DNA of 41,726 bases from a virus (Duplodnaviria > Caudoviricetes), in IMG/VR virus record IMGVR_UViG_3300030037_000001, positions 1 to 41,726 of that record; one strand, 5' to 3'. Of the stretch, positions 1,632 through 38,916 are shown in pieces. The position numbers were made by a program, and so were the translations under genes. The notes under the pieces were generated by a model. That model was not told where the DNA came from, did no database searches, and worked only from the letters and a program-made list of their open reading frames with translations. The first letter of the stretch is position 1, and the number at the start of each line of letters is the position of its first letter.

Positions 1632-3898
1632 TGGCTATACAAGAACGCGGAATTCGTAAAACAGGAGGTGGGTCCACTGCAACAGGTGTGGGGGTTCAAC
1701 AACAGGCTGTGAAACCTAGTGCTGCTGAGAAGTTGATGCAGTCACTAGGCGTACTGACTAACTCTAACAAGTTGTCTCCACATCAGCAACACCAAGTTGA
1801 CACAGCGTCAGAAGCATCATACAATGAGTTAGAACGTGAGATCAGAGGTCTACCCGCTGATCAGCAACTGATTAAACGTCAAGAGCACAGAGAGGCTTTC
1901 GAAGGTGCAAACCCTAACAGCTTCATTGGTGATCTTACAGGACAGGTCAACCCTAAGATGCAAGGCTATGATAATGCCATATCTAGAAACGCAATGTTTG
2001 AGACTATGGATGGAATCAAGGCGCTGAACAGTGGGTTCACGGAGGCTGACACAGAGGCTGATAGACTGGGAGCCCTCACAGCTATGTATGATACACAGCG
2101 AGGACGTTTAGAAGGTGTTTCACCACAGGTTGCAGACCAGTGGTCTAACTCTAGTATGGACGCCTTTAACAATGCTTACAGTACCATCAAAGCAGAAGCT
2201 AAGGCTATTCGTATAGAGGAGGCTGTAGGTGAGGAGATACGTCTAGCTGATAATGAGCTAACACACATAGGTGACTATGATATCATAGCAGGTAGTAAGA
2301 CACTGGCAGGATTCAATCAGTTAAGGGATGACTTGCAGGTTGCTGATGAAGGTGGAGGCACTAGGTTTGATTATGCTCTAGGTGATAAGGTATTCTCATC
2401 TATACAATACCTGCGTAAGCGTGTTAAGTTACAGAACCCTACAGTCAGTAAGGATCAGTTAAACGCTATGGTATTGGAGAAATACAAGTGGACTGCTGAG
2501 ATGTACAACTCACCAGAGATGTTCGAACACCTCATGAACGCTAAGAATGGTTCTGGTATGTCAGCCTCTGAGTTGAACCCCCAGTATGCACAGGATACTT
2601 ATCAAGGTATTGCTGAGATGGTCACACGTAAAGAGGAAGCCTTGGACGCTAAAGCTGAGCAAGGACGTAAGGTTACTGGGCGTCAACTGATTGACAACAA
2701 TAAGTTGAAATACATGGATATGCACAGAGCCTCGAAAGGTTTTAGTAATGATCCTAACCAACCACCCGCATTAGCACCCCGTGAGATATTCGCTGAGATA
2801 CATAAGGATAGACAACAGGTTCGCAATGAGTTGGAAGCAGGTACTATAAATAGTGGGGAAGCTATTCGTGCGTATAATGAGTTAGACTCGATGGAGGCAG
2901 TATTTCATGACACAGTACGTGATACTATTGTAACACCTCAGCATGACTCAGCGCTTAGACGATATGTTATTGAAGGTGGTGACCTAACAGGGCTTGCTAA
3001 ATACAAGTACGCATCCAATGCTGTCAAAGGTTGGGCATCTGAAACTATTGAAGCACGTGGTTCAGCAGTAAGTGATATTAAGAAAGAGATCATGAGAAGC
3101 ACTAACAAGGCTACTGATAGATACGTACAGGAGCATGTGGATCAACTAAAGCAAGCCAGTAGTACAGGTAAGGATTTTGCAAGTGTTGCAGGTGTAGCAC
3201 CTTATGACTATGATAGACATGTAGCTAAGGTCAAACGTGTGTACCAAGAGGCTCAGATACAGTGGCTTGAGGATAATGATGCAAGCGAGTTGACACCAGA
3301 GGTTAACCGTCAGATTCATGAACAGGTTAGACCACAGGTTGACACTATAGTTGAGAACATGCAGTTAGGAGCTAAGGAGTATGACTCCAAGCTGGTAGAG
3401 CGTGCTAATGAGCTACAGAAGGTTAGGACTGAGGCTGAGACACAGGAGAAGGTTAAGGTAGAACAGAAGGTTAAAGCTGAGTCACAGAAGGTCGAGAACC
3501 TACAAGGAACAGCTAGATTAGATAAGGTTAGGGAAGGTATAGCAAGTGTACCTCTAGATAGGTCTAACCCTTCTATATACCCCATGGCTACACAGCTAGT
3601 AGAGCAGATACGTGAGTTTGGATCGGGAGACATAGAAGCTGATATCAGACGTGGATTACCTACAGTACTAAATGAGTTCGCTAATGCTTTTGAGGATAAC
3701 TCAGATAGTTACGACTCAGAGACTAAGGATAGGATCAGACAAGCTATCGCAGACCTAAGAGACCCCTCTACAGGTAACATAAGACCCGATGCCATCGACA
3801 TGCTGATGTCTGGTGGTTTCATGCAGGAATCAACAAGTATGGCTAATAACTCTGACAACTCTGGCTTCGCTAGGTTCTTGGAGGCACTAGCTAAATAA
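1631..3898 (+). CDS. Internal virion protein C (gp15-like)
   Basis: ~755 aa, helical; size and position between gp14- and gp16-like genes. Confidence 0.65.
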   Translation: MAIQERGIRKTGGGSTATGVGVQQQAVKPSAAEKLMQSLGVLTNSNKLSPHQQHQVDTASEASYNELEREIRGLPADQQLIKRQEHREAFEGANPNSFIGDLTGQVNPKMQGYDNAISRNAMFETMDGIKALNSGFTEADTEADRLGALTAMYDTQRGRLEGVSPQVADQWSNSSMDAFNNAYSTIKAEAKAIRIEEAVGEEIRLADNELTHIGDYDIIAGSKTLAGFNQLRDDLQVADEGGGTRFDYALGDKVFSSIQYLRKRVKLQNPTVSKDQLNAMVLEKYKWTAEMYNSPEMFEHLMNAKNGSGMSASELNPQYAQDTYQGIAEMVTRKEEALDAKAEQGRKVTGRQLIDNNKLKYMDMHRASKGFSNDPNQPPALAPREIFAEIHKDRQQVRNELEAGTINSGEAIRAYNELDSMEAVFHDTVRDTIVTPQHDSALRRYVIEGGDLTGLAKYKYASNAVKGWASETIEARGSAVSDIKKEIMRSTNKATDRYVQEHVDQLKQASSTGKDFASVAGVAPYDYDRHVAKVKRVYQEAQIQWLEDNDASELTPEVNRQIHEQVRPQVDTIVENMQLGAKEYDSKLVERANELQKVRTEAETQEKVKVEQKVKAESQKVENLQGTARLDKVREGIASVPLDRSNPSIYPMATQLVEQIREFGSGDIEADIRRGLPTVLNEFANAFEDNSDSYDSETKDRIRQAIADLRDPSTGNIRPDAIDMLMSGGFMQESTSMANNSDNSGFARFLEALAK

Positions 3899-8374: not shown

Positions 8375-10141
8375 ATGAGCAAGGTACAAATCACAGAACA
8401 AGCCTTGAAGGATGACTTTATATTATTCCTTCATTACGTATGGACACTCCTAGGGCTACCAGCTCCTACTAAGTGCCAAGTCTTGATGGCACACCATATA
8501 TGTAATAGTAAACTAAGGCAACGAGGGGTTATGGCCTATCGTGGAGCTGGTAAGTCATACATCGCCTATGCTTATTGTGTATGGCGTATGTGGAATACCC
8601 CAGACATTAAGATACTTGTTATATCAGCCACAAGTGGACGAGCTGATGCCTTCAGTAAGACATGTAAGCAGATCCTAGAGTTAAGCCCCCTGTTAAAGAA
8701 GCTTATACCGCCCTCTGGTTCAGATAACCAATGGTCGAACATTGAGTGGACAGTCCAAGGGGCGTCAGCCTCGGGTTCGTGTACAGTTAAATCAGTTGGT
8801 ATCACAAGTCAGATAACAGGTACACGTGCTGACCTCATCCTCAGTGATGACGTTAGTTCACCTAAGAATAGTATGACAGTTGACCAGCGTGAGAAGCTCA
8901 GAGGTCAAGTAGCAGAATTCCAAGATATTAAGAAAGGTGATGAGTCGGGTACAGGCAAAGGGGCTAGCTCCGAGATTCTATACCTAGGTACACCTCAGAG
9001 TTATGAGTCGCTGTACTACCATCTGTCAGCACAGGGTGTAACCTTTCGTATATGGCCTGCTAGATACCCTCAGACGGACGCTATACGTGGTTACAATGGA
9101 ATGCTGTGCCCAGTTATCGAAAACGAAGTGTTTGAAGATACAGAGCTACAGGGAGTACCTACAGACCCTAAGCGTTTTACACATGAGGAGTTGTTAGAAC
9201 GGGAGGCTATGCAGGGTAAGGCAAGGTTCCAGATGCAGTTCATGTTGAACACTGAGTTAACTGATGCTGACAAGTTCCCCTTGAAGTTATCAGACTTGAT
9301 TGTTTATACACCAAGTAGATTCAGTGCTCCACGACAGGTCAGCCACTCGTTAGATAAGAACCTAGAGATTAAGGAACTTAAGAACATGGGTTTCTCTAGT
9401 GACAGATGGAGACGACCTTCATACATTGATGAGAAGCAAGTACCCTATGAACGTATCATAATGGGCTGTGACCCTTCTGGTCGTGGTACAGATGAGACCT
9501 CATGGTGGGTAGTTGGTATCGTCATGGGTACAATATACATCCTAGACGGTGGTGGACTTGAAGGTGGGTATGATACTGAACGAGTGTTGATACCACTAGC
9601 TAAGAAAGCTAAGGAATGGAACATACAGGTATTCATCTCTGAGTCAAACATGGGTGACGGGATGTTCACCGAGTTAATGCGTCCAGTTATGCTGAAGTAC
9701 CAAAGATGTGTTCTTGAGGAAGTACGTAATCATATACGTAAGGAGACAAGGATCATTGATACGTTGGAACCGCTCATGGCTAGACATAAGCTAGTAGTAT
9801 CTGAGGATATCATTACCCGTGATATACGTGATGCTGAGAAACACGGTAAGGAAGGTAAGAGTGCAAACCGCATGGCTTGGTCTTTGTTCCACCAGATGAC
9901 TCACATCTCCCATGAGAAGGATTGTCTAATTCATGATGATAGACTGGATGGACTAGCTATAGCAGTTGGTTACCTAGTGGACTCAGTTGATGTGGATGTT
10001 GAACTTGAGATCAGACGAGCGTCAGACCAAGAGTTAGAAGACCGAATGTCACGTGAAGGACGCTATACAGTAGGAATGGACTACGAGGTTAGCCGTAATA
10101 CAGGTTACGGCCACTCAGGGTCTTACTCCCTGCTGGACTAG
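8375..10141 (+). CDS. terL: Terminase large subunit (gp19-like)
   Basis: AYRGAGKS Walker A, ITGTRADLILSDD Walker B, LGTPQ, DPSGRGTDET nuclease motif, HDDRLD. Confidence 0.97.
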   Translation: MSKVQITEQALKDDFILFLHYVWTLLGLPAPTKCQVLMAHHICNSKLRQRGVMAYRGAGKSYIAYAYCVWRMWNTPDIKILVISATSGRADAFSKTCKQILELSPLLKKLIPPSGSDNQWSNIEWTVQGASASGSCTVKSVGITSQITGTRADLILSDDVSSPKNSMTVDQREKLRGQVAEFQDIKKGDESGTGKGASSEILYLGTPQSYESLYYHLSAQGVTFRIWPARYPQTDAIRGYNGMLCPVIENEVFEDTELQGVPTDPKRFTHEELLEREAMQGKARFQMQFMLNTELTDADKFPLKLSDLIVYTPSRFSAPRQVSHSLDKNLEIKELKNMGFSSDRWRRPSYIDEKQVPYERIIMGCDPSGRGTDETSWWVVGIVMGTIYILDGGGLEGGYDTERVLIPLAKKAKEWNIQVFISESNMGDGMFTELMRPVMLKYQRCVLEEVRNHIRKETRIIDTLEPLMARHKLVVSEDIITRDIRDAEKHGKEGKSANRMAWSLFHQMTHISHEKDCLIHDDRLDGLAIAVGYLVDSVDVDVELEIRRASDQELEDRMSREGRYTVGMDYEVSRNTGYGHSGSYSLLD

Positions 10142-10236: not shown

Positions 10237-10260
10237 CGAATAGGGCGCACTATAGACCCT
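10237..10260 (+). promoter_or_regulatory. Phage RNAP promoter (right-end, phiOR-like)
   Basis: CGAATAGGGCGCACTATAGACCCT is identical to 31335-31358; CACTATAG core as in T7 promoters. Confidence 0.8.
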
Positions 10261-11480: not shown

Positions 11481-11945
11481 ATGAGAGAAATAATTAACAC
11501 ACCTAATGAAAACATCGACGCACATCATATCCTAGCAAGGGCCATCAACGCATGGGATATCAACGCAGGAGATATTAACGCAAGGGCCATCAACGCATGG
11601 GATATCAACGCAGGAGATATTAACGCATGGGATATCAACGCATGGGATATCAACGCAGGAGATATTAACGCATGGGATATCAACGCATGGGATATCAACG
11701 CAGGAGATATTAACGCATGGGATATCAACGCAGGAGATATTAACGCATGGGATATCAACGCAGGAGATATTAACGCAGGAGATATTAACGCATGGGATAT
11801 CAACGCAGGAGATATTAACGCATGGGATATCAACGCAGGAGATATTAACGCAGGAGATATTAACGCGGATAGAATCACATGCAAGTCCTTGCAGTGCACA
11901 AACAGGCAGGAATTGATTGACGATGGTACGGTCACATTTACTTAA
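11481..11945 (+). CDS. Early pentapeptide-repeat protein (INAWD/INAGD), probable beta-solenoid
   Basis: 23 five-residue units; RBS AAGGA. Confidence 0.75.
   Translation: MREIINTPNENIDAHHILARAINAWDINAGDINARAINAWDINAGDINAWDINAWDINAGDINAWDINAWDINAGDINAWDINAGDINAWDINAGDINAGDINAWDINAGDINAWDINAGDINAGDINADRITCKSLQCTNRQELIDDGTVTFT
11529..11873 (+). repeat. 15-bp coding tandem repeat, 23 units
   Basis: AACGCA-TGGGATATC (10 copies), AACGCA-GGAGATATT (10 copies), plus 3 degenerate units. Confidence 0.95.
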
Positions 11946-11963
11946 TAAAAAGATGTATTATAT

Positions 11964-12023
11964 AATAAACTTTCAACTTTCTTTCCTAAACCATTTGTAA
12001 CATCCCGTTTAACATAGTATTAT
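11964..12023 (+). promoter_or_regulatory. Host sigma70-type early promoter 2
   Basis: Same upstream element; TTGTAA-17 nt-TATTAT. Confidence 0.7.
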
Positions 12024-12058: not shown

Positions 12059-12280
12059 ATGTCCACCAATACCACGTCACGCCCAACAGTCGTAGTTATC
12101 TCAAAGTATGAGGCATTAGGCACGTATCCTGTAGTACTAAGAGGGTTTACCCGTGAGACTACAAAATATAGAGTTGATTATGGTTGTCAAGAGCAGTGCC
12201 ACGACCTATTAACAGAGGCCATGGAACACTTCATGGAATGCGTACACCATGCTAATACAAGTGTTGGACTAGTAGACTAG
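12059..12280 (+). CDS. Early hypothetical protein
   Basis: 73 aa, RBS AAGGAG. Confidence 0.7.
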   Translation: MSTNTTSRPTVVVISKYEALGTYPVVLRGFTRETTKYRVDYGCQEQCHDLLTEAMEHFMECVHHANTSVGLVD

Positions 12281-12288
12281 TACTAATA

Positions 12289-12348
12289 AATAAACTTTAA
12301 ACTTTCTTTCATAAACCATTTGTAACATCCCGTTTAACACTGTAATAG
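12289..12348 (+). promoter_or_regulatory. Host sigma70-type early promoter 3
   Basis: Near-duplicate of 11964-12023; TTGTAA-17 nt-TAATAG. Confidence 0.6.
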
Positions 12349-12876: not shown

Positions 12877-13080
12877 ATGAATACTAATATTAAAAGAGAA
12901 GATCTAGTTAAGGCATGGGACGAAGCTTATAGGGTACATGACGAAGCTTATGGGTTATATAACGAAGCTCATAGGGCATGTGGCGAAGCTTACGGGTTAT
13001 ATAACGAAGCTCATAGGGCATGTGGCGAAGCTGGTAGGGCATTGATAGATTTTGACAACCTAAACAGACAAGGAGTTTAA
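12877..13080 (+). CDS. Early heptad-repeat helical protein
   Basis: xEA(Y/H)xxx heptads, including a 42-bp duplication; RBS AGGAG. Confidence 0.7.
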   Translation: MNTNIKREDLVKAWDEAYRVHDEAYGLYNEAHRACGEAYGLYNEAHRACGEAGRALIDFDNLNRQGV

Positions 13081-14163: not shown

Positions 14164-14742
14164 ATGACTGAATACAATGTAGAAGTATACAGAAATAGAA
14201 CAGTATGGAAAAACAAAGCTGGCAAGCGCCATCGCTTAGATGGCCCCGCGATTGAGAGGTCAGACGGGTATAAAGTATGGTTTGTAGAAGGCAAGCGCCA
14301 TCGCTTAGACGGCCCCGCGGTTGAAGAAGGGGACGGCTCTAAAGTATGGTATGTAGAAGGCAAGCTCCACCGCTTAGATGGCCCCGCGATTGAAGAAGTG
14401 GATGGATATGGAGCATGGTACGTAGAAGGCAAGCGCCATCGTTTAGACGGCCCCGCGATTGAGTGGGCAGACGGCTATGGATCATGGTACGTAGAAGGCA
14501 AGCGTCATCGTTTAGACGGCCCCGCGATTGAGTGGGCAGACGGTTATACAGCATGGTACGTAGAGGACAAGCGCCATCGTTTAGACGGCCCCGCGATTGA
14601 GAGGTCAGACGGTTATAAAGCATGGTACGTAGAAGGCGAGGAACTAACTGAGCAAGAATTTAATAATACTGATAAGACTAAAGAAATGACGGTAGCAGAA
14701 AGCGAGAAGGCTTTAGGGTATTCAGTAAAAATAACTAAATAA
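14164..14742 (+). CDS. HRxDGPA-repeat (MORN-like beta-hairpin) protein
   Basis: Six 23-aa repeats GKRHRLDGPAIExxDGYxxWYVE; C-terminal EMTVAESEKALGYSVKI. Confidence 0.85.
   Translation: MTEYNVEVYRNRTVWKNKAGKRHRLDGPAIERSDGYKVWFVEGKRHRLDGPAVEEGDGSKVWYVEGKLHRLDGPAIEEVDGYGAWYVEGKRHRLDGPAIEWADGYGSWYVEGKRHRLDGPAIEWADGYTAWYVEDKRHRLDGPAIERSDGYKAWYVEGEELTEQEFNNTDKTKEMTVAESEKALGYSVKITK
14221..14634 (+). repeat. 69-bp coding tandem repeat, 6 units
   Basis: Units start at 14221, 14290, 14359, 14428, 14497 and 14566. Confidence 0.95.
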
Positions 14743-14827
14743 AGTTTCTTAACATCGAGGCTTACATTACTGTAAAAAAGGGGTGTAAGTTTATGTATTA
14801 ACTAATTATAAACAAAGGGTTTTAACC

Positions 14828-17305
14828 ATGGCTACACTATTCGATCAAGTACAGTTTGAGGACAAGTGTCACGAAGATGCATTCAAAGGTACTGACCACC
14901 TGTCACGCTCAGTACACACACAGTTAATACCTGCCTTCATCGAGCAGTATGACGCATGGCTAAACACTAAATCAGCAGGTAAAGCGGGTAAACTGCGTGG
15001 AATCATGAGAGAAGCTGTTACACCTAAGGCTCTCATTGCCTCCAACATGCTCAAGACTGTATTCGAATTAGAAGGCCAAGAGGTCAGCACATTAGTACAC
15101 AAGTTAACTAAATGCTTCATGGTCGAGGAAGAGTATCAAGATAGTATGCAGGCCATTCAGAAAGGTAACAATAAGAAGATGGCTGACCGTGTAGCCTTCC
15201 AGATGCAGAACAAGCCCACACATGCCAGCCGTATGGAGCACCTACAAAAGACACGCTCTAGACTTACTAATATTGGTGAGTTCGACAAGAAGCTTTATGC
15301 AGGTGTTGGAGCCTTAATGCTTGACATTGCATCATCTATACAGGTATACACTCAAGGTGTTACCTTCAATGTATTCTTAATGGAAGCCCCATTCAAGGAA
15401 TATAACAGCCAGAACCGCCCACGTACATCGAGACGAGTGGTTTTCACTGCTGACTTCAACAAGTGGTTTGGCCTTAAAGTACATAACGTACAAGCCTCGG
15501 CGTTCAGCCTCAAGCCTACACTAATCAAGCCTAACAAGTGGGAAGACTTAGTAGGTGGCGGTTACTACTCACAACGTGGTAATCTACACTGGCAGTTCAT
15601 CCGTAATGCTGACCTCAGATTGTACAAAGCTTCGGACGTACCTGCTGAACTCTATGAGGCGGTCAACGCTATACAAGAAACGCCTTGGAAGATCAATAGT
15701 AAGGTCTTATCTATAATGAACTGGTGTTTAGAAAATAACTTCCCTATGGGTGGCTTAACGTGCCTTGACACTAAGATAGGTAAGAAGGAAAGACGTGACG
15801 TTTTACGTAATCGTATACCTAAAGATGAGTGGGACTTACTCACACTTGAAGATCGTATCAAGTTCACTAAAGAACGGGATGCTAAAACTATCGACACTGC
15901 CCGTCAAGAGTCTAAGTACGACAAGGTAAAGAGCCAAGTTGCTATGGCTCAAGAGTTCTCTAAATATAACGAGGTGTTCTTCCCTCACGCTGTAGACTTT
16001 CGCGGTCGTATATACCCTATACCTTGTGCTGTTAACCCACAGGCTGACAAGATAGGTCAAGCTTTACTACAGTTGGCACATGGTGAAGCATTAGGAGAAG
16101 ATGGTCGTTTCTTCCTAGCTGTACAGGGTGCTAATACATTTGGTAATGACAAAGTATCTTTCGAGGATCGTGTAGCCTTCATTGAAGGTAAGTCCGAAGA
16201 GATTAAAGAGATCGCCTTAAACCCCCTTAAAACTCGTGAAATATGGTCTACATGTAGTGAGCCTTGGGCTTACCTCTCGTTCTGCTTTGAGTGGGCTGAA
16301 ATGCTAGCTATGAGTGACCATACGAAATACGTGAGTCACACAGCAGTTAAACTTGACGCTACATGTAGTGGCCTACAGCATTACTCAGCTATGCTTCTCG
16401 ATCCTAAAGGTGCACTAGCTACAAACATTGGTAACAACTCAGATCGTCAAGATATCTACATCGAAGCCAAGGACGCAACCAAGGGTCTGATCTTTGATGA
16501 GCTCGTAAGTCTAACCGACCCAGTAGAAAAGAACTGGAAGCGTTCATTCATTGATACATTGACACGTAACGTAGCGAAAAACCCTTGTATGACACTGCCT
16601 TATGGTGTATCAACATTCGGTATAACTGATACACTTGTATTACTTGAACGTGATGGTGATTTCAAAGAGGCGTACATAGAGGAGGGTTCTAATGCTAAAG
16701 ACAAGTTGTTAAAGCTTAGATGGTTGGCTCAGCAGTTGGAGCAAGGTGTAGCTGACACAGTACCCTCAGCAGTTGATGCAATGGGTTGGTTGAAGGCCTG
16801 TGATAAGATCGTATGTAAATCACTACCGTCCAACGAGTACTATGAGTTCCCTAGCCCAATAGGTTTCATGGTAAAGCAAGCGAGACTTAAGGAGACCACC
16901 AAACGTTTCAAGAGTTACTTCGGTGACACTAAACTACGGGTTGACATGTCAGTTAGCGTAAAGTCTACAGACTACAATAAAGCTAAATCCAATACATCTA
17001 TATCTCCTAACTTCATCCACGCACAGGATGCAAGCCATTTGACTAACGTAGCACTCAGAGCTAAACGTGAGTTAGGCCTTAAGTCGTACAGCTTCATTCA
17101 TGACTCATTTGGTGTACATCCTAGTGAGACAGGTGCGTTCCTCAAGGTAATCAAGGAGGAGTTCCACCAACTCTACTCTGGTAACCGTCTAGTCGAGCTT
17201 AAGACATACTTAGAAGAGAGATACCACGTTGAGTTACCAGTTGCTCCAACACAGGGATCATTCGATATCAACACCGTCCTAGACTCTAAGTTTATCTTCA
17301 GCTAA
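14828..17305 (+). CDS. Single-subunit DNA-directed RNA polymerase (T7 gp1-like)
   Basis: DFRGRIY, DATCSGLQH, RNVAKNPCMTLPYG, PNFIHAQDASH and IHDSFG motifs. Confidence 0.98.
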   Translation: MATLFDQVQFEDKCHEDAFKGTDHLSRSVHTQLIPAFIEQYDAWLNTKSAGKAGKLRGIMREAVTPKALIASNMLKTVFELEGQEVSTLVHKLTKCFMVEEEYQDSMQAIQKGNNKKMADRVAFQMQNKPTHASRMEHLQKTRSRLTNIGEFDKKLYAGVGALMLDIASSIQVYTQGVTFNVFLMEAPFKEYNSQNRPRTSRRVVFTADFNKWFGLKVHNVQASAFSLKPTLIKPNKWEDLVGGGYYSQRGNLHWQFIRNADLRLYKASDVPAELYEAVNAIQETPWKINSKVLSIMNWCLENNFPMGGLTCLDTKIGKKERRDVLRNRIPKDEWDLLTLEDRIKFTKERDAKTIDTARQESKYDKVKSQVAMAQEFSKYNEVFFPHAVDFRGRIYPIPCAVNPQADKIGQALLQLAHGEALGEDGRFFLAVQGANTFGNDKVSFEDRVAFIEGKSEEIKEIALNPLKTREIWSTCSEPWAYLSFCFEWAEMLAMSDHTKYVSHTAVKLDATCSGLQHYSAMLLDPKGALATNIGNNSDRQDIYIEAKDATKGLIFDELVSLTDPVEKNWKRSFIDTLTRNVAKNPCMTLPYGVSTFGITDTLVLLERDGDFKEAYIEEGSNAKDKLLKLRWLAQQLEQGVADTVPSAVDAMGWLKACDKIVCKSLPSNEYYEFPSPIGFMVKQARLKETTKRFKSYFGDTKLRVDMSVSVKSTDYNKAKSNTSISPNFIHAQDASHLTNVALRAKRELGLKSYSFIHDSFGVHPSETGAFLKVIKEEFHQLYSGNRLVELKTYLEERYHVELPVAPTQGSFDINTVLDSKFIFS

Positions 17306-17318
17306 AACCTGTCGTTCT

Positions 17319-17356
17319 AGCCCCCTATGTCCTTAACTGGATGTGGGGGCTTTTTT
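17319..17356 (+). terminator. Intrinsic terminator after the RNAP gene (TE-like)
   Basis: AGCCCCC-TATGTCC / GGATGT-GGGGGCT stem followed by a T-run. Confidence 0.85.
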
Positions 17357-17477
17357 GTGTTTAGGTGTGTTATAACTCATGTTAATCTAACTATAACCTT
17401 TGTCGGAAAACATAATCCGCAATAAGTTATAGTAGGCTAAATACCACTCTTGTAAACCCTTAGCTACCAGCAGGTTA

Positions 17478-17497
17478 CGAATAGGGCGTAGCATAGA
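17478..17497 (+). promoter_or_regulatory. Phage RNAP promoter variant (class II-like)
   Basis: CGAATAGGGCGTAGCATAGA matches the other two copies at 17/20 positions; just after the RNAP terminator. Confidence 0.65.
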
Positions 17498-17499
17498 AT

Positions 17500-17750
17500 A
17501 GAACACACTCCAACAAAATGTGATTTTATATCCAGTAATAGCCAAGAGGTTTTACTGCTCGTCTCACTATAGGTTAAACCACATGTTTCACTGTATGCTA
17601 ACCTATCGCTAAAACATAAGATCTTATATATACATATAATATATATAAACAATAACATTAAGTTAAAACCAAGTGTCTACTCCGCAAGGATGTTAAAACC
17701 CTTGGTCTAAGAGATTAGTTTAATTTATACATTAATAATAAATAAAGAGG
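17500..17750. other. AT-rich region, candidate primary replication origin
   Basis: TATATATACATATAATATATATAAA tract downstream of a phage promoter after RNAP, as in the T7 origin layout (inference). Confidence 0.4.
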
Positions 17751-17758
17751 TAAACTCC

Positions 17759-17923
17759 ATGTTAGACCAATTAAATAAAGAAGTACAAGCCACCTTCCTA
17801 CGTAATGATGCAGTACAGGTAGTTAGAAGAGACCTACAGGTTGAACGTAAGGCTAAACACATCAAGGCACAGGAGGCTCACGCCTTCAATAATGCATTAT
17901 GTAAACGACTCATTAAATACTAA
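17759..17923 (+). CDS. 54-aa hypothetical protein
   Basis: RBS GAGG; MLDQLNKEVQ...KRLIKY; stop overlaps the next ATG (TAATG). Confidence 0.65.
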   Translation: MLDQLNKEVQATFLRNDAVQVVRRDLQVERKAKHIKAQEAHAFNNALCKRLIKY

Positions 17924-18069
17924 TGGGTATCATGATGGGATGTGATCCTTCGGGTCGTGGTACAGATGAGACATCATGGTGGTTAGTTGATACCATAACG
18001 GGTACAATATACATACTAGATTGTGCCTACTGTGTACCTAAGGAGAACCAGCATGTCACTACTAATTAA
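17923..18069 (+). CDS. 48-aa ORF containing a copy of the TerL nuclease motif
   Basis: MGIMMGCDPSGRGTDETSWWLVDTITGTIYILDCAYCVPKENQHVTTN; 17926-18024 matches terL 9452-9550 at 84/99 nt. Confidence 0.6.
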   Translation: MGIMMGCDPSGRGTDETSWWLVDTITGTIYILDCAYCVPKENQHVTTN

Positions 18070-18094
18070 AATCATCATTGAACACTATGTGTGA
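18053..18094 (+). pseudogene. Truncated duplicate of the 18163 gene start (MSLLIKIIIEHYV*)
   Basis: RBS and first 8 codons duplicated, 110 nt apart. Confidence 0.55.
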
Positions 18095-18162
18095 ACTATG
18101 TGTCACAGGATGTATACAATATAAATTAACTGGTGCTTATTGTGCACCTAGGGAGAAACAAA

Positions 18163-18435
18163 ATGTCACTACTAATTAAAATCATCATGCAATTCATCCG
18201 TGGGTTATTCTCTAAGAAGGACTCAGAGGCTAAGCATAAGGCTCTATTAGAAGAAGTCACACAAGAAGTCAACAAGAAGTCTATAACCATTAATAGGGCT
18301 ACTAGACGTGAAATGGCTAAGGCTTTAGCTCACCACCCCGACCACAAGGGGATCACACACCTAGATCTACCCAAGGTTTGTAGTAAGGTTGAGTTCATCT
18401 GGTGGGTCAATCAAGTAGAGTATACAGCACGATGA
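18163..18435 (+). CDS. Hypothetical protein (90 aa, amphipathic N-terminus)
   Basis: ATG at 18163 with GGGAG RBS. Confidence 0.7.
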   Translation: MSLLIKIIMQFIRGLFSKKDSEAKHKALLEEVTQEVNKKSITINRATRREMAKALAHHPDHKGITHLDLPKVCSKVEFIWWVNQVEYTAR

Positions 18436-18689
18436 GCAAATTTGTACACGCGTTCACCTTTGGTCAGAGACTCACGGCTTTTGACTGGTCGAAGCCTAGG
18501 TATCATCTAGGCTACGCATATGATGGTTCACATATAACAACAAAATGTAATGTACTAGCAGGTGAGCAGGTTACTGACAGCTACAAGTGGTACGATGACT
18601 CGCATATAGAGCCTTATGTTGAACCTAAAGCTACGACCAAACGTGGATGGGCTATGATCCCTCAATGTTGGGAATATGCTAAACCATGA
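18432..18689 (+). CDS. Hypothetical protein
   Basis: ATGA overlap; MSKFVHAF... Confidence 0.65.
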   Translation: MSKFVHAFTFGQRLTAFDWSKPRYHLGYAYDGSHITTKCNVLAGEQVTDSYKWYDDSHIEPYVEPKATTKRGWAMIPQCWEYAKP

Positions 18690-18874
18690 TTCATGACTCG
18701 TTAAACCCTCTAGGACTACCTGTTAACACTCATGTATACATTGGTGCAACAGAGTCCGAGGTTTTGAACATGAAGCGCCGAGGGTTAACCACTGGCTACT
18801 CTGAAAAGGGTTTACAAGTGGTTAATACCGATGGTATAATAAGAACATTTAATAATTGGATGGTAGTACTATGA
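18686..18874 (+). CDS. Hypothetical protein
   Basis: ATGA overlaps at both ends. Confidence 0.65.
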   Translation: MIHDSLNPLGLPVNTHVYIGATESEVLNMKRRGLTTGYSEKGLQVVNTDGIIRTFNNWMVVL

Positions 18875-18996
18875 AAGCAGAAGACGCAATCCTAGGATTA
18901 ATCCTAGTGTCCCTATGTGCAATCATTGCAATAATGTCTGTACAGGTAAACACCTTGAAACAGGATGTGGAACAATTAAAGATAGAGGTTCACTAA
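18871..18996 (+). CDS. 41-aa TM plus short coiled-coil protein
   Basis: MKAEDAILGLILVSLCAIIAIMSVQVNTLKQDVEQLKIEVH; coupled overlaps at both ends. Confidence 0.6.
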   Translation: MKAEDAILGLILVSLCAIIAIMSVQVNTLKQDVEQLKIEVH

Positions 18997-19193
18997 TGAA
19001 GTATACCATTAAACATAACTTAGTTACAGGGAGCTATGTGCCTTACTGGGGTCATCTAATTATAGGAGAAGATGGTGTAACTGGTTGCTCCTATGTTACA
19101 TGGACTAGTTATGGGGAAGCACGACGCCTTATAGAGTTGCATAAGATGCTGGCACTCACTGGTACTGAATACATCATTGAGATTCCGACATGA
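18996..19193 (+). CDS. Hypothetical protein (MKYTIKHN...)
   Basis: TAATG coupling and GAGG RBS favour the start at 18996. Confidence 0.65.
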   Translation: MKYTIKHNLVTGSYVPYWGHLIIGEDGVTGCSYVTWTSYGEARRLIELHKMLALTGTEYIIEIPT

Positions 19194-19489
19194 TGCCTTA
19201 CTGGTGCCACATACCCTCCTTTACGGATGCTGTAGAAGTGGTTAGACACCTTGAGGACGCAGGTGTGACATCTCATATCAGACACTCGACTAAACGACCC
19301 GACCATGACATGATAGTAACCCAAGCTCATACCGCCCTAGAAATTATGGTGTATGATAATGTTGCTACAGGTGGTCAGTATTATAAGTACTTTAGTCATA
19401 CCGAGAGGACAGCCAAGGATTTAAACCCCGCGCTTGAACTCCCATATAATAAATTTGTAGAATACCTACAATACGAAGCAACTAAATAA
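19190..19489 (+). CDS. Hypothetical protein
   Basis: 99 aa, ATGA overlap. Confidence 0.65.
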   Translation: MMPYWCHIPSFTDAVEVVRHLEDAGVTSHIRHSTKRPDHDMIVTQAHTALEIMVYDNVATGGQYYKYFSHTERTAKDLNPALELPYNKFVEYLQYEATK

Positions 19490-19511
19490 AACACACAAAG
19501 GAATAAGCAAT

Positions 19512-20267
19512 ATGTCAAACATTACAAACACACGCAAAGAAGAGTTTAAAGGGTCTATGCAGGTTAAAGCATCGTGCAAGACTCCAGAGGGTTTCGCATC
19601 ATTCCCACACCTTAACCGTCCAGATGAGTACATGGGTAAGAAGCAGTACAAGGTTGACCTTCGTATTGACCCGAGTAACCCAGAGTCAGCCGCATTCATT
19701 GAAGAGGTGAAGGTATGGGAAGCTAAGCATAAGGTCGTACAGGCTCAAAACATCAAGGCGTCCATTAAGGATATCCCAGAGGATTCAGCTAACCCTAAGC
19801 ATAAGAAGGCCATTGATAAGGCTAACGTTATGCTTGCAACGCTTGAGAACGATGACTACAAGTCATTGTTGATCGAAGAGTATGACAACGACAGTGGACA
19901 ACCTACTGGTATGTTCAAGTTACGTGCCAAGTGTAATGCAGGTGGTGTAGCCCGTGATGGGAAAGAGTACAAAATCCAACCAAAGATCTATACAGCCTCT
20001 GGTCGTGTAGCTCTGGAAGATGCACCTATTATCACCGCGGGTTCAACACTCCGTCTAAACCTCGACATCAGTACTTACGAGATGCCCTCCAGCGGTTACG
20101 TGGGTATTTCTGTTCGACTCAAGGATGTACTCATCGTTAAGATCGGGGGTGGTGCAGACTCTGGTGGTTCAAACCCCTTCGGAGGTGACGACGCATATAA
20201 GCCAGATACATTCAGTGCACCCGAGGCTACATCTGGTGACGAAGATGATTCTGAAGAGGGATACTAA
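19512..20267 (+). CDS. ssb: Single-stranded DNA-binding protein (gp2.5-like)
   Basis: TPEG..FPHLNRPD, YKVDL, AGSTLRL, GISVRLKDV; acidic tail ending in an aromatic residue. Confidence 0.9.
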   Translation: MSNITNTRKEEFKGSMQVKASCKTPEGFASFPHLNRPDEYMGKKQYKVDLRIDPSNPESAAFIEEVKVWEAKHKVVQAQNIKASIKDIPEDSANPKHKKAIDKANVMLATLENDDYKSLLIEEYDNDSGQPTGMFKLRAKCNAGGVARDGKEYKIQPKIYTASGRVALEDAPIITAGSTLRLNLDISTYEMPSSGYVGISVRLKDVLIVKIGGGADSGGSNPFGGDDAYKPDTFSAPEATSGDEDDSEEGY

Positions 20268-26316: not shown

Positions 26317-27137
26317 AAGCTCTAATTGATGCAGATGCCCTGTGTTTCCGCATGGCTGTTGTCGTTGAGGAAGTCAACCCCTTTACAGGTGAGGTTGAAT
26401 CAGCTGACTTAGGCGAGGCGTTTAACTTGTGTAAGATGAGGTTAGCGGAGGTTGAACAAGTGTTATTCGATGAGTTCCAAGAGGACGTTGACATCGAGTT
26501 ACACTTCTCCGACAAGACTAACTACAGGTACAGAGTTGAACCCTCATACAAATCAAATCGTAAGGGCTCTAGTAAGCCTGTGATATACAAGGAGCTTGTA
26601 GATAAATGCAAGAGGTTATATGACTGGGTTGAGTATACAGATATTGAAGCTGATGATTCTATGGGTGCTTGTCAAGATAAGTTCGCTGGTGTTACATGTA
26701 TTGTATCTCCCGACAAGGATCTTAGGCAGATAGCTGGCTACCACTTGAACCTCAATAAGCTAGTCGAGGGTGTAGAGGAAGTTACAGCTGAGCAAGGACA
26801 TAAGTTCTTCATGACCCAATGTATAGCGGGTGATACCTGTGACGGATATCATGGTGCTACTGGTTTTGGTATGAAGAAGGCTAAGGACTGGTTAGAGACC
26901 TATGGTTACACATGGGACTCAATAGTAAAAGCTTATGAGTCTTGTAAATCACCCAAGACTAAAAGAACAAAGATGCCTAATGGTAAATATAAAACAAAAC
27001 GTTTAGTGGTTAGGAACCTAGGATTAGGTGAAGCCGAGGCGTTAAAAACCGCCCGCATGGCTTTCATCTTAAATGACTGGAAGTATTATGATAAGGCTAC
27101 AAACGAGGTCAGATTATGGGAACCCAGCGATGTCTAG
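26313..27137 (+). CDS. 5'-3' exonuclease (gp6-like)
   Basis: LIDAD, YKSNR, EADD, SPDKDLRQ and GDTCDGY motifs. Confidence 0.95.
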   Translation: MKALIDADALCFRMAVVVEEVNPFTGEVESADLGEAFNLCKMRLAEVEQVLFDEFQEDVDIELHFSDKTNYRYRVEPSYKSNRKGSSKPVIYKELVDKCKRLYDWVEYTDIEADDSMGACQDKFAGVTCIVSPDKDLRQIAGYHLNLNKLVEGVEEVTAEQGHKFFMTQCIAGDTCDGYHGATGFGMKKAKDWLETYGYTWDSIVKAYESCKSPKTKRTKMPNGKYKTKRLVVRNLGLGEAEALKTARMAFILNDWKYYDKATNEVRLWEPSDV

Positions 27138-27550
27138 AATGCTGCGAATTTAAGGAGATAGGTTCTTTCTATCATAATAAGCAACTAAACAAACCTTATA
27201 GTAAATGTAAGGCCTGTGTATGTGCACGTAATAAGAAATGGAGAGATGAGCCAAAGAACAGGATTAGAAAGAATGAGGGCAATAAACGTAACCATCTACT
27301 TCGGACTTTCGGGCTTAAGTGGAGTGATTATACAGATATGCATGAGGATCAGCAAGGTCTGTGTATGATTTGTAATAAACCCCAGTCTGGTCGTAAGCTA
27401 GCTGTAGATCATAACCATAGTACAGGAGAGGTAAGAGGTCTGCTCTGTGATGGTTGTAATAGAGGTCTAGGTTACTTCAAGGATAATCCCGCGCTACTAG
27501 AAGGTGCTATAACATATTTAAGAAACAAAGGAGATTACTGTGAAGAATAA
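27116..27550 (+). CDS. Endonuclease VII-family His-Me nuclease, probable homing endonuclease
   Basis: QQGLCMIC...LAVDHNH.TGEVRGLLCDGCNRGLG; N-terminal CxxC...CxxC. Confidence 0.88.
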   Translation: MGTQRCLECCEFKEIGSFYHNKQLNKPYSKCKACVCARNKKWRDEPKNRIRKNEGNKRNHLLRTFGLKWSDYTDMHEDQQGLCMICNKPQSGRKLAVDHNHSTGEVRGLLCDGCNRGLGYFKDNPALLEGAITYLRNKGDYCEE

Positions 27551-36688: not shown

Positions 36689-36790
36689 ATGAATAATTTT
36701 ATAAAGTGGTCTTCAGTGCCTTACGTGATACGTATTCTAATAGCACTAGAAGCAGGTTACTTAGTTTACAATGCAGGGAGGTTCCTCTAA
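36689..36790 (+). CDS. 33-aa hydrophobic micro-ORF
   Basis: MNNFIKWSSVPYVIRILIALEAGYLVYNAGRFL; GAGG RBS; TAATG overlap with the gp12 start. Confidence 0.5.
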   Translation: MNNFIKWSSVPYVIRILIALEAGYLVYNAGRFL

Positions 36791-38916
36791 TGAGTAAATT
36801 TATTCGTAATGACAACTCCCTGTACAATGGGATTAGTCAACAAGCGGTTGAACTCAGATTGCCAAACCAAGTGTCTGACGCGGTGAATGCCAAGATGTCC
36901 GTATCCTACGGTTTAGAGAAGCGTCCACCAGCAGAGGTAATCACTCGTAAGGTAGGTTCAACTCTCAACATGGATACACTGGTTCACACCATTAACAGGG
37001 ATAGCCAAGAGCAGTATGTCATGGCTTGGTCTAACACAGGTAATAGCACAGTGTTCGATCTCTCTGGTAATGAGTTACCTATCATCTATGATGTACCAGC
37101 TGTTCAAACGTACATTGAGACTGTGGATTCAACCACTGGTCTATACAAACCTAGCTTGGACTTGAAGTTAACCACTGTACTAGATAACACGTTGTTAGTT
37201 AATACCAATGTCGTAGCCAATATGAATCCAGCGAGTAACACTCCTGCATTAACCAATGATGTATATCTATGGGTTGAGAACGGTATAGAGCAGGTTGAGC
37301 GCAAGTTAATCATTGATGGTACATTAGAGATGACAGCACCCAAGGGTAGCTTGAATGACACTGAGGTCATCATTGATGAGTTTATACTAGCCTTCGTAGG
37401 TGAGACGACTTATGTGGTATCTAAGATATCTAAGTCAGTCATGCTTATACGTAGAGCTGATGGGGCGTTACCTAAGGTTGTAGCCACAGATACATATAGT
37501 GATTCAACCATGAGTGTAACCTCCAGCCAAGGCGCTAAGTTTGAGAACCTTCCACCTAGAGCTTTAGATGGTGCAGTAGTACGTATACAATCAGACACAC
37601 CTAGTGAAGCTGAGCATTACCTTAAGTATGACGAGGAGAAAGACGCTTGGTTTGAGACAACTGGCCCGAATGAGCCCGAGGCCCTTGAGCCAAACACTAT
37701 GCCTAAGACAGTAGTCAGACGAGTGGACGATCCAGCAGGTACAATCACAGGTACGCCTAATCAGATCTACTTCAGTGTCGAGAACATTGACTGGTCTATC
37801 AAGGAATCGGGTGCTATTGAAGAGGCTCCAAACCCCTCGTTTACAGGAAGTCCCATCTCTGAGGTATTCTTCTATAAGAACAGACTAGGGTTCCTCAGTG
37901 GTGAGAACGTGATACTATCTAGGATTGACGACTTGTTTAACTTCTTCCCTACCTCGATTAAAGAGGTGTTGGACGATGACCCTGTAGATATATCCGTGAG
38001 TTCAAACACAGCGTTGAACCTCATACACGTAGCTACATTCCCCGACTCCCTAGTTCTGTTTGGTACTAACAAGCAGTTTACACTCCATTCGGATGGTAAG
38101 CCTTTCACAGCGTTGAACATCACGGTAGACCCCACGACTGCATACAATGCAAACCTTGAGGCAAGCCCTGTGTCAGTAGGCTCATCCTTATTCTTCAATG
38201 CTCCAGTAGGTCGCTACTCATCAATGAGAGAGTACGCTATCACACCAGATACACTAGTAGCTGATGCTGTAGGTGTAACAGGTCATGTACCTAGATTCCT
38301 ACCAGCCAACATAAAGCAGATACTTGCAGAGCCTAACCTCGAGTACCTATTCTTAATTGATAAGAACGAAGCTAGGGACACCTGTGATAATACACTGTGG
38401 GTATACAAGTTCTTTTGGCAAGGTAATCAGAAACTTCAATCCTCATGGGTTAAGTGGGAATTCTGGTGCAACCCGATCGGTGGTGGCTTGTTCGGTGGTA
38501 ACCTAGTAGTTCTAGCCCAAGATGGTGAAGACACTGTGTTAACCACAATGAACCTAGAGGATCAACCCGTTGAGATACTACGTGAAGGTACAGAGATTCC
38601 ATTCAAGGTAACTTTACCTTTGATTGACAATCAGACTCTCACAGCTCAAGAGGATATAACCTTTGGTCAAGACAACATCACAGCTGAAGTTACTGAGGAA
38701 GTCTACAATCAGTATGGGCAGGAATGTGTACAAGGTGTTCTAATAGATCGTTGGACAGGTGAGGAATACCTATATGATCGTAAGTTTATATCAGAGGGTA
38801 ATCACTTCTTGGTATTCATAGGTATAAGCTCTGGAGTTATTACACCAGAAGCCACAGATGATAAAGTCCTAGGTACTTACACCATAGGCGTTAACCAAAT
38901 AGACACAGGAGCTTAA
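36790..38916 (+). CDS. Tail tubular protein B (gp12-like nozzle), N-terminal 708 aa
   Basis: NGISQQ...R, GLEKRPP, NPSF.G, FFYKNRLGFLSGENVILSR, DDPVD, QSSW.KW; lacks the canonical C-terminal ~130 aa. Confidence 0.92.
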   Translation: MSKFIRNDNSLYNGISQQAVELRLPNQVSDAVNAKMSVSYGLEKRPPAEVITRKVGSTLNMDTLVHTINRDSQEQYVMAWSNTGNSTVFDLSGNELPIIYDVPAVQTYIETVDSTTGLYKPSLDLKLTTVLDNTLLVNTNVVANMNPASNTPALTNDVYLWVENGIEQVERKLIIDGTLEMTAPKGSLNDTEVIIDEFILAFVGETTYVVSKISKSVMLIRRADGALPKVVATDTYSDSTMSVTSSQGAKFENLPPRALDGAVVRIQSDTPSEAEHYLKYDEEKDAWFETTGPNEPEALEPNTMPKTVVRRVDDPAGTITGTPNQIYFSVENIDWSIKESGAIEEAPNPSFTGSPISEVFFYKNRLGFLSGENVILSRIDDLFNFFPTSIKEVLDDDPVDISVSSNTALNLIHVATFPDSLVLFGTNKQFTLHSDGKPFTALNITVDPTTAYNANLEASPVSVGSSLFFNAPVGRYSSMREYAITPDTLVADAVGVTGHVPRFLPANIKQILAEPNLEYLFLIDKNEARDTCDNTLWVYKFFWQGNQKLQSSWVKWEFWCNPIGGGLFGGNLVVLAQDGEDTVLTTMNLEDQPVEILREGTEIPFKVTLPLIDNQTLTAQEDITFGQDNITAEVTEEVYNQYGQECVQGVLIDRWTGEEYLYDRKFISEGNHFLVFIGISSGVITPEATDDKVLGTYTIGVNQIDTGA

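Follow-up and report, generated by a model that had tools for sequence, protein, structure and literature searches.

The window analyzed here, the whole 41,726-nucleotide record IMGVR_UViG_3300030037_000001, is the complete genome of a T7-like phage with direct terminal repeats, and it carries a 48-residue open reading frame (ORF) in which a diverged piece of the phage's own large terminase subunit gene (terL) is fused to the end of a duplicated neighboring mini-gene. This chimera is real and rare, its origin is well explained and its function is unproven; it is probably an old product of microhomology-guided recombination that has been drifting without a function of its own. The features of the locus and their counterparts elsewhere in the genome are:

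8375-10141, + strand: terL, 588 amino acids, intact and without an intron
9452-9550, + strand: parent segment within terL
9529-9540, + strand: 12-mer in terL matching 18115-18126 of the four-cysteine gene at 11 of 12 letters, the likely 3' recombination microhomology
14828-17305: RNA polymerase gene
17478-17497, + strand: variant of a promoter-like 20-mer, upstream of the operon, a putative promoter of the phage-RNA-polymerase type
17759-17923, + strand: upstream gene of 54 amino acids, 51% identical to its counterpart in the relative L206
17923-18069, + strand: 48-residue chimeric ORF, comprising the start codon, 32-33 TerL-derived codons and about 15 codons from the duplicated four-cysteine mini-gene
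17926-18024, + strand: diverged copy of terL codons 360-392, matching 9452-9550 at 84/99 nucleotides
18022-18078, + strand: first copy of a duplication with a 110-nt period, 49/57 identical to 18132-18188
18053-18094, + strand: 13-codon ORF created by the duplication, with a strong ribosome site
18087-18179, + strand: intact 30-residue four-cysteine mini-gene (the Cys gene), conserved in L206 at 2842-2937
18163-18435, + strand: downstream gene of 90 amino acids, whose start is duplicated at 18053

Besides terL and the RNA polymerase, the genome encodes a gp2.5-like protein, endonuclease I, a primase/helicase, a DNA polymerase, an exonuclease, the portal, capsid and tail proteins and TerS. There is no DNA match to it among cultured phages, where the best protein matches reach about 42% (TerL) and 29% (RNA polymerase). 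The sample is marine and the sequence is present in one seawater run; no RNA run is listed as containing it. An assembly artefact at the locus is extremely improbable: a single Logan unitig of the likely source run (X1) spans 14572-20000, both junctions included, at a depth of 178 with zero differing letters, and the locus reads the same in a second assembly record (L205). As the unitig and this second record possibly derive from the same source sample, they counter assembly error without representing independent samples; that all records of the locus may stem from one sample is the point in favor of an artefact, and besides the unitig itself, the longest shared word of just 20 nt and the codon-structured nature of the 15 differences speak against it. 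The locus is not covered in two further runs (X2 and X3).

The terL copy was confirmed by a self-BLASTn search, in which it aligns with its parent in the same frame and without gaps (E 1.3e-26), just as the first-pass annotation had described. It is the sole dispersed gene-to-gene repeat of such strength in the genome, and no fragment of another essential gene was found copied elsewhere in it. Likewise borne out is the description of the core MGCDPSGRGTDETSWW (TerL codons 363-378), where all four differences between copy and parent are synonymous; of the 13 changes in codons 361-391, 7 are synonymous and 6 alter the amino acid. The residue changes cluster at the end of the second predicted strand, making it more polar. 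To trace the donor we compared the copy with 116 motif-bearing TerL homologs, the phage's own TerL included. The copy retains G364, C365 and W378, which occur respectively in two, one and one of these proteins, and the retention of such rare residues places the donor in the phage's own terL lineage. Conversely, the substitutions L379, D381 and T384 of the copy are found in none of the 116 homologs, which argues against a functional TerL as their source; as judged from this comparison, the amino acid changes of the copy appear to have arisen outside one.

The last 15 residues of the chimera, whose origin had been missed in the first-pass annotation, are unrelated to TerL and come from the 110-nt tandem duplication of the neighboring gene. 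The first copy of this duplication contains the 3' half of the Cys gene, an AAGGAG ribosome site and the first 26 nt of the 90-residue gene. In this tail 8/57 letters differ from the local parent, and 5 of these 8 changes are non-synonymous; the divergence from the respective parents is hence similar in both halves of the chimera, namely 15/99 (15%) in the terL part and 8/57 (14%) in the tail. The start of the chimeric ORF lies, as had been noted, in a TAATG overlap with the stop of the upstream 54-residue gene. According to our table of ribosome sites the chimera lacks a Shine-Dalgarno sequence; given that the conserved Cys gene likewise lacks one, this absence is a weak argument. The table covers 49 starts, 3 of them with mis-set coordinates and 2 longest-ORF starts doubtful, so that the rank of 5/49 drawn from it is rough. 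The stop of the 13-codon ORF overlaps the start of the Cys gene, which suggests that translation of the latter is likely to be coupled to it. The Cys gene itself was unannotated; its cysteines are spaced C-x2-C-x3-C-x9-C and its product is possibly metal-binding, and searches of Pfam and Atlas with it gave zero matches. The upstream 54-residue protein shows a weak match to the Pfam family Paratox (E 0.007, failing the cut-off).

Upstream of the operon, a terminator-like hairpin (17322-17349) precedes the promoter-like 20-mer at 17478, other copies of which are found at 10237 and 31335. Thus, the earlier statement that a class II-like promoter lies ahead of the ORF stands as far as a promoter-like repeat on the + strand is concerned, its class II identity being putative. 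A separate, strongly conserved non-coding block (17531-17580; about 1984-2037 in L206) ends in CTCACTATAGG and is unlike the repeat at 10237, 17478 and 31335. It could be a replication origin or a second type of promoter, and L206 has its end in tandem.

We recovered one relative of this locus, L206, whose RNA polymerase is 68% identical and which shares the terminator-like hairpin, the non-coding block, the 54-residue gene and the 30-residue Cys gene. Among the first 24 residues of the Cys gene product 14 are identical between the window and L206, 7 of these 14 being encoded by different codons, and all four cysteines are kept. This conservation indicates that the Cys gene is real and older than the fusion, and that the ORF combines parts of two genes resident in this genome. 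At the syntenic slot L206 has an unrelated 55-residue gene, which does possess a Shine-Dalgarno sequence, and the terL piece is absent. Comparison with close relatives had been put forward as a check on the fragment: it is indeed missing from L206, though this phage is no close relative, being so much more distant than the age of the copy that the absence says little about conservation. Beyond about position 3550 L206 turns into G+C-richer, bacterial-looking DNA; it is likely to be a chimeric contig, and our comparison is confined to the part before this switch. There are relatives whose TerL is 78-82% identical. Scans of viral contigs with the exact motif and TerL yielded no close kin and a scan with the RNA polymerase yielded one locus, at 32%, while the RNA polymerase scan of genome contigs found nothing. 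Two patterns common to the window and L206 had zero matches in viral contigs, and one of them had zero in genome contigs.

These observations can be combined into a scenario for the birth of the chimera. A 110-nt tandem duplication of the Cys gene region would have arisen, after which the phage annealing machinery (the gp2.5-like protein, exonuclease and endonuclease I) may have pasted a stretch of terL over the front of one duplicate. The likely guide on the 3' side is the 12-mer at terL 9529, which sits some 20 nt from the fusion point, where the copied piece ends on the 3' side. A search of both strands for 12-mers from the replaced 57 nt, allowing one mismatch, finds 12 places in the genome, terL 9529 among them; the rough chance of such a placement is 0.004 (12 x 25 / 83,000). 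Since the orthologous letters are partly kept in L206, the 11/12 match predates the event. On the 5' side we infer, from terL, L206 and 18078-18086, a microhomology ATGAAC, which would require later changes. One old recombination event, guided by microhomology and followed by drift, is the likely course. The arrangement could have persisted because the duplicated ribosome site and the 13-codon ORF would supply ribosomes to the Cys gene, such that collapse of the repeat would remove the intact Cys gene, and because the terL piece lacks long flanking repeats that could excise it. Any chimeric peptide would be made at a low level via re-initiation.

In phage mosaicism by illegitimate or relaxed homologous recombination, as presented in the accessible part of PMC2327257, a short fragment is likewise joined to unrelated DNA at short junction homologies, and the chimera shares with that pattern a local tandem duplication; it differs in that a single genome supplied both donor and target and in that the frame is open and coupled over a catalytic motif. 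Certain features do sit uneasily with mere debris: the piece lies in the sense direction, in frame with a coupled start and with the tail, is free of indels and spans three whole predicted strands. The location also counts against debris, being presumably where T7-like phages keep accessory genes.

The first-pass annotation read the synonymous bias as a mark of selection on the peptide. In our null model the copy drifts freely while its parent tolerates silent changes alone, and synonymous bias is thus expected under neutrality. The 7 silent of 13 changes fall within this model (p 0.13-0.24), so that the overall bias is no greater than a neutral copy would be expected to show. Under a one-lineage null the same 7/13 give p 0.015-0.027, which weighs against debris if most of the silent changes fell on the copy, the case in which that test applies; of the changes altering G+C, 10/14 are towards A/T in the copy (p 0.18). 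Neutral simulations yielded at most 6 residue changes in 25% of cases and remained stop-free in 70%. A 16-residue identical run emerged in only 2.8%, a further point against debris, and all ten conserved motif residues were intact in 5.2%. The intact 16-residue core is accordingly a weak signal (p 0.03-0.05), and the simulations taken together with the tail, where 5/8 changes alter the residue, point to a weak signal in the core and none overall.

Residues 3-33 of the peptide correspond to the predicted strands beta1-beta3 of the RNase H-like nuclease domain, including D366 and D373, and the copy matches the profile PF22530 with 25.4 bits, below the cut-off of 27, over positions 2-29 of 108. 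The homology to TerL stops at codon 391-392; the ESNMGDG and HDDRLD motifs, whose glutamate and aspartates respectively we take to be the remaining metal-site residues, are downstream and outside the copy, and the chimera lacks a complete nuclease fold with the remaining acidic ligands. AlphaFold run with an alignment of TerL segments returned three strands (pLDDT 81), a result that reflects the parent, and a single-sequence fold of the peptide reached pLDDT 52; if made, the peptide is predicted not to be stably folded on its own. Foldseek found nothing at E 0.001, with 8dgc_E appearing at E 1.8, and an Atlas search with the chimera gave a weak lead to terminase besides unnamed clusters at 0.91-0.92. 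The claim that the motif bears a catalytic aspartate holds, as D8 of the peptide is equivalent to TerL D366 and aligns with D365 of PhiV-1, which is named a nuclease catalytic aspartate in the accessible part of PMC13601566. Compared with the T7-type terminase nuclease domain (PF22530; PhiV-1 gp19, PDB 8DGC), the chimera has the first three predicted strands and this aspartate, without the rest of the domain, and ends in the unrelated Cys-gene tail.

The presence of the catalytic motif raises the alternative that the chimera is kept as a small decoy, presenting the DPSGRG-DET loop and three strands without the ATPase domain and thereby blunting a terminase sensor, or else that it poisons the TerL of a competitor; we regard this as unlikely. 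It is similarly doubtful that the recombination-born fragment yields a 48-residue decoy, made early, that fills the nuclease pocket of a terminase-sensing STAND receptor and leaves the receptor inactive. Avs3 is said to contact nuclease active-site aspartates (Gao et al. 2022), and the known phage Avs inhibitors are reportedly small early-gene proteins (Gao et al. 2022). The chimera is likewise a small gene in the early/middle region; its intact core, its open and coupled frame and the more polar end of strand 2 are all compatible with a decoy. The portion of PMC13601566 available to us also reports that KpAvs2 is sometimes activated by the nuclease domain and that EcAvs2 holds one 11-residue nuclease helix of the partly unfolded domain, both of which would favor such a role; against it, according to the same portion, SeAvs3 makes extensive contacts with the natively folded nuclease, and the ATPase domain suffices to activate EcAvs2 and Upx (further sources on terminase sensing, likewise accessible in part: PMC13581612, PMC10448857, 10.1101/2023.04.06.535777). 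As activation of SeAvs3 requires both terminase domains, according to the available part of bioRxiv 10.64898/2026.08.25.746987, a nuclease-only binder would not trigger it. A non-activating nuclease piece would be a logical Avs3 decoy, but three strands without helices would make a poor mimic: the peptide covers 33 of the approximately 230 residues of the domain without the rest of the metal site. Moreover, the freely varying TerL residues are kept as well as the invariant ones, and the fragment was found once, is absent from L206 and is the single one of its kind in the genome. T4 vs.8 and Ksap1/2, as portrayed in the accessible parts of PMC13601566 and PMC11564622, are also small genes resembling parts of TerL outside the packaging module; they differ in being ATPase-like folded domains that occur across phage taxa and activate Avs2, whereas the chimera is a 33-residue nuclease piece in one genome. 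Searches of the openly available literature yielded no report of a terminase-fragment decoy or fragment-of-trigger inhibitor. A peptide of this kind, if it did block a terminase sensor, would represent a new counter-defense route: part of the trigger, unable to activate, would be expressed against receptors from which mutation of the trigger offers phages no escape.

That the piece arrived already diverged from the terL of a co-infecting sibling phage is a reading that differs from recombination within the genome in the donor alone, and it is quite improbable. The silent core differences and the existence of relatives with TerL at 78-82% identity would accommodate it; the retention of G364, C365 and W378, however, demands a donor far closer than those relatives, L379, D381 and T384 have no precedent among the homologs, and the tail has aged equally with respect to its local parent. 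Hence, when the first-pass annotation offered as its neutral alternative recombination debris from a sibling phage, the debris was closer to the truth than its decoy and the sibling was probably the wrong donor. A further reading, to which we give slightly less credence still, is that the copy acts as DNA, either by offering another target to a sequence-guided nuclease or silencer that recognizes the first two positions of each codon (CRISPR, VIPR or a homing endonuclease) or by serving as a gene-conversion donor recoding the terL motif with the protein unchanged. All four core differences are at third positions, and the accessible part of bioRxiv 10.64898/2026.10.15.759431 describes VIPR guides as skipping wobble positions and targeting active-site codons, so that silent-only change would also fit a DNA decoy. 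In Vibrio phage VEN (L219, 1740-2600) an intron-like insert carrying a homing endonuclease gene splits the same TerL loop, the catalytic loop of the nuclease, and at least 80% of the VEN exon-insert junction is matched in 18 phage records; the motif is therefore a targeted DNA site in some relatives. However, giving the same molecule two places to be cut would probably harm the phage, as would a silencer bound here, ahead of the replication genes. A single additional copy per genome makes a poor sink, and the longest exact match to terL is 20 nt. GGYNN runs of four or more units, the VIPR criterion, are absent from both strands, and neither an Rfam match in the window nor a repeat array at the locus was found. 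A structured regulatory RNA was rejected, the fold being no more stable than chance: three RNA stretches holding the copy have z-scores of -0.7 to -0.9, no better than shuffles, and 68% of randomly mutated copies fold as well as the real one. A 7-bp stem pairing the start with the cluster of substitutions was discarded since a 7-bp inverted repeat occurs in 31% of null copies and the stem is missing from the predicted fold. A diversity-generating retroelement was also dismissed; an A stands in the copy at 6 of the 15 differing positions and in terL at 1, and no reverse transcriptase is present among the 57 proteins scanned.

Recurrence of such terL fragments, proposed earlier as a check, was not borne out, with no second stand-alone copy in the viral loci surveyed: stand-alone motif ORFs numbered 0 in 120 motif loci (2 of 64 IMG/VR parts) and 0 in 80 further loci. 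Of three flagged candidates, one was a chance match and the other two were TerLs that are interrupted or lie at an edge. The motif matched 2300 times in 2294 records of cultured phages, from which it follows that at most 6 records may have a second match (5-6 extra matches). Word searches and HMMER detected no homologs of the chimera, the seven HMMER matches besides the query being unrelated repeat proteins. A profile search for short motif-bearing proteins recovered 26 besides the query, 10 of them on contigs of 22-69 kb and each a singleton. Four of these 10 have tails that read as out-of-frame terL (0/40 shuffles) and one has such a head; among the other five, two tails are too short for this comparison and three lack a clear terL reading. 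Real mini-genes may exist among the 10, going by their protein sequences. An insert in terL of Yersinia phage fPS-53 is irrelevant here, being located in the ATPase half. Overall, the catalytic aspartate and the open, coupled frame survive from the earlier reading, while its argument from synonymous bias is weakened. Taken as recombination debris, the locus displays the birth of a phage mini-gene that can be read in one genome, with donor, target, tandem duplication and junction microhomology, and it illustrates that an excess of silent changes in a copied piece of an essential gene does not prove function.

Several other aspects of the genome deserve mention. The tail nozzle (PHROG 457) is seemingly split, with its front part at 36706-38916 and a weak match to its end part at 24-326, and two fiber-like genes lie between the parts, across the map end. 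An endonuclease VII-type gene (27116-27550), which is free-standing and overlaps the exonuclease gene, is a candidate homing endonuclease. In the early region the ORFs 11481-11945, 12877-13080 and 14164-14742 consist of tandem repeats of 15, 21 and 69 nt, respectively, the first matching pentapeptide repeats and the last DUF6745. The same region contains two A/T-rich 68-nt blocks (11955-12022 and 12280-12347), 87% identical to each other and bearing sigma70-like hexamers, which are probably promoters for the host polymerase.
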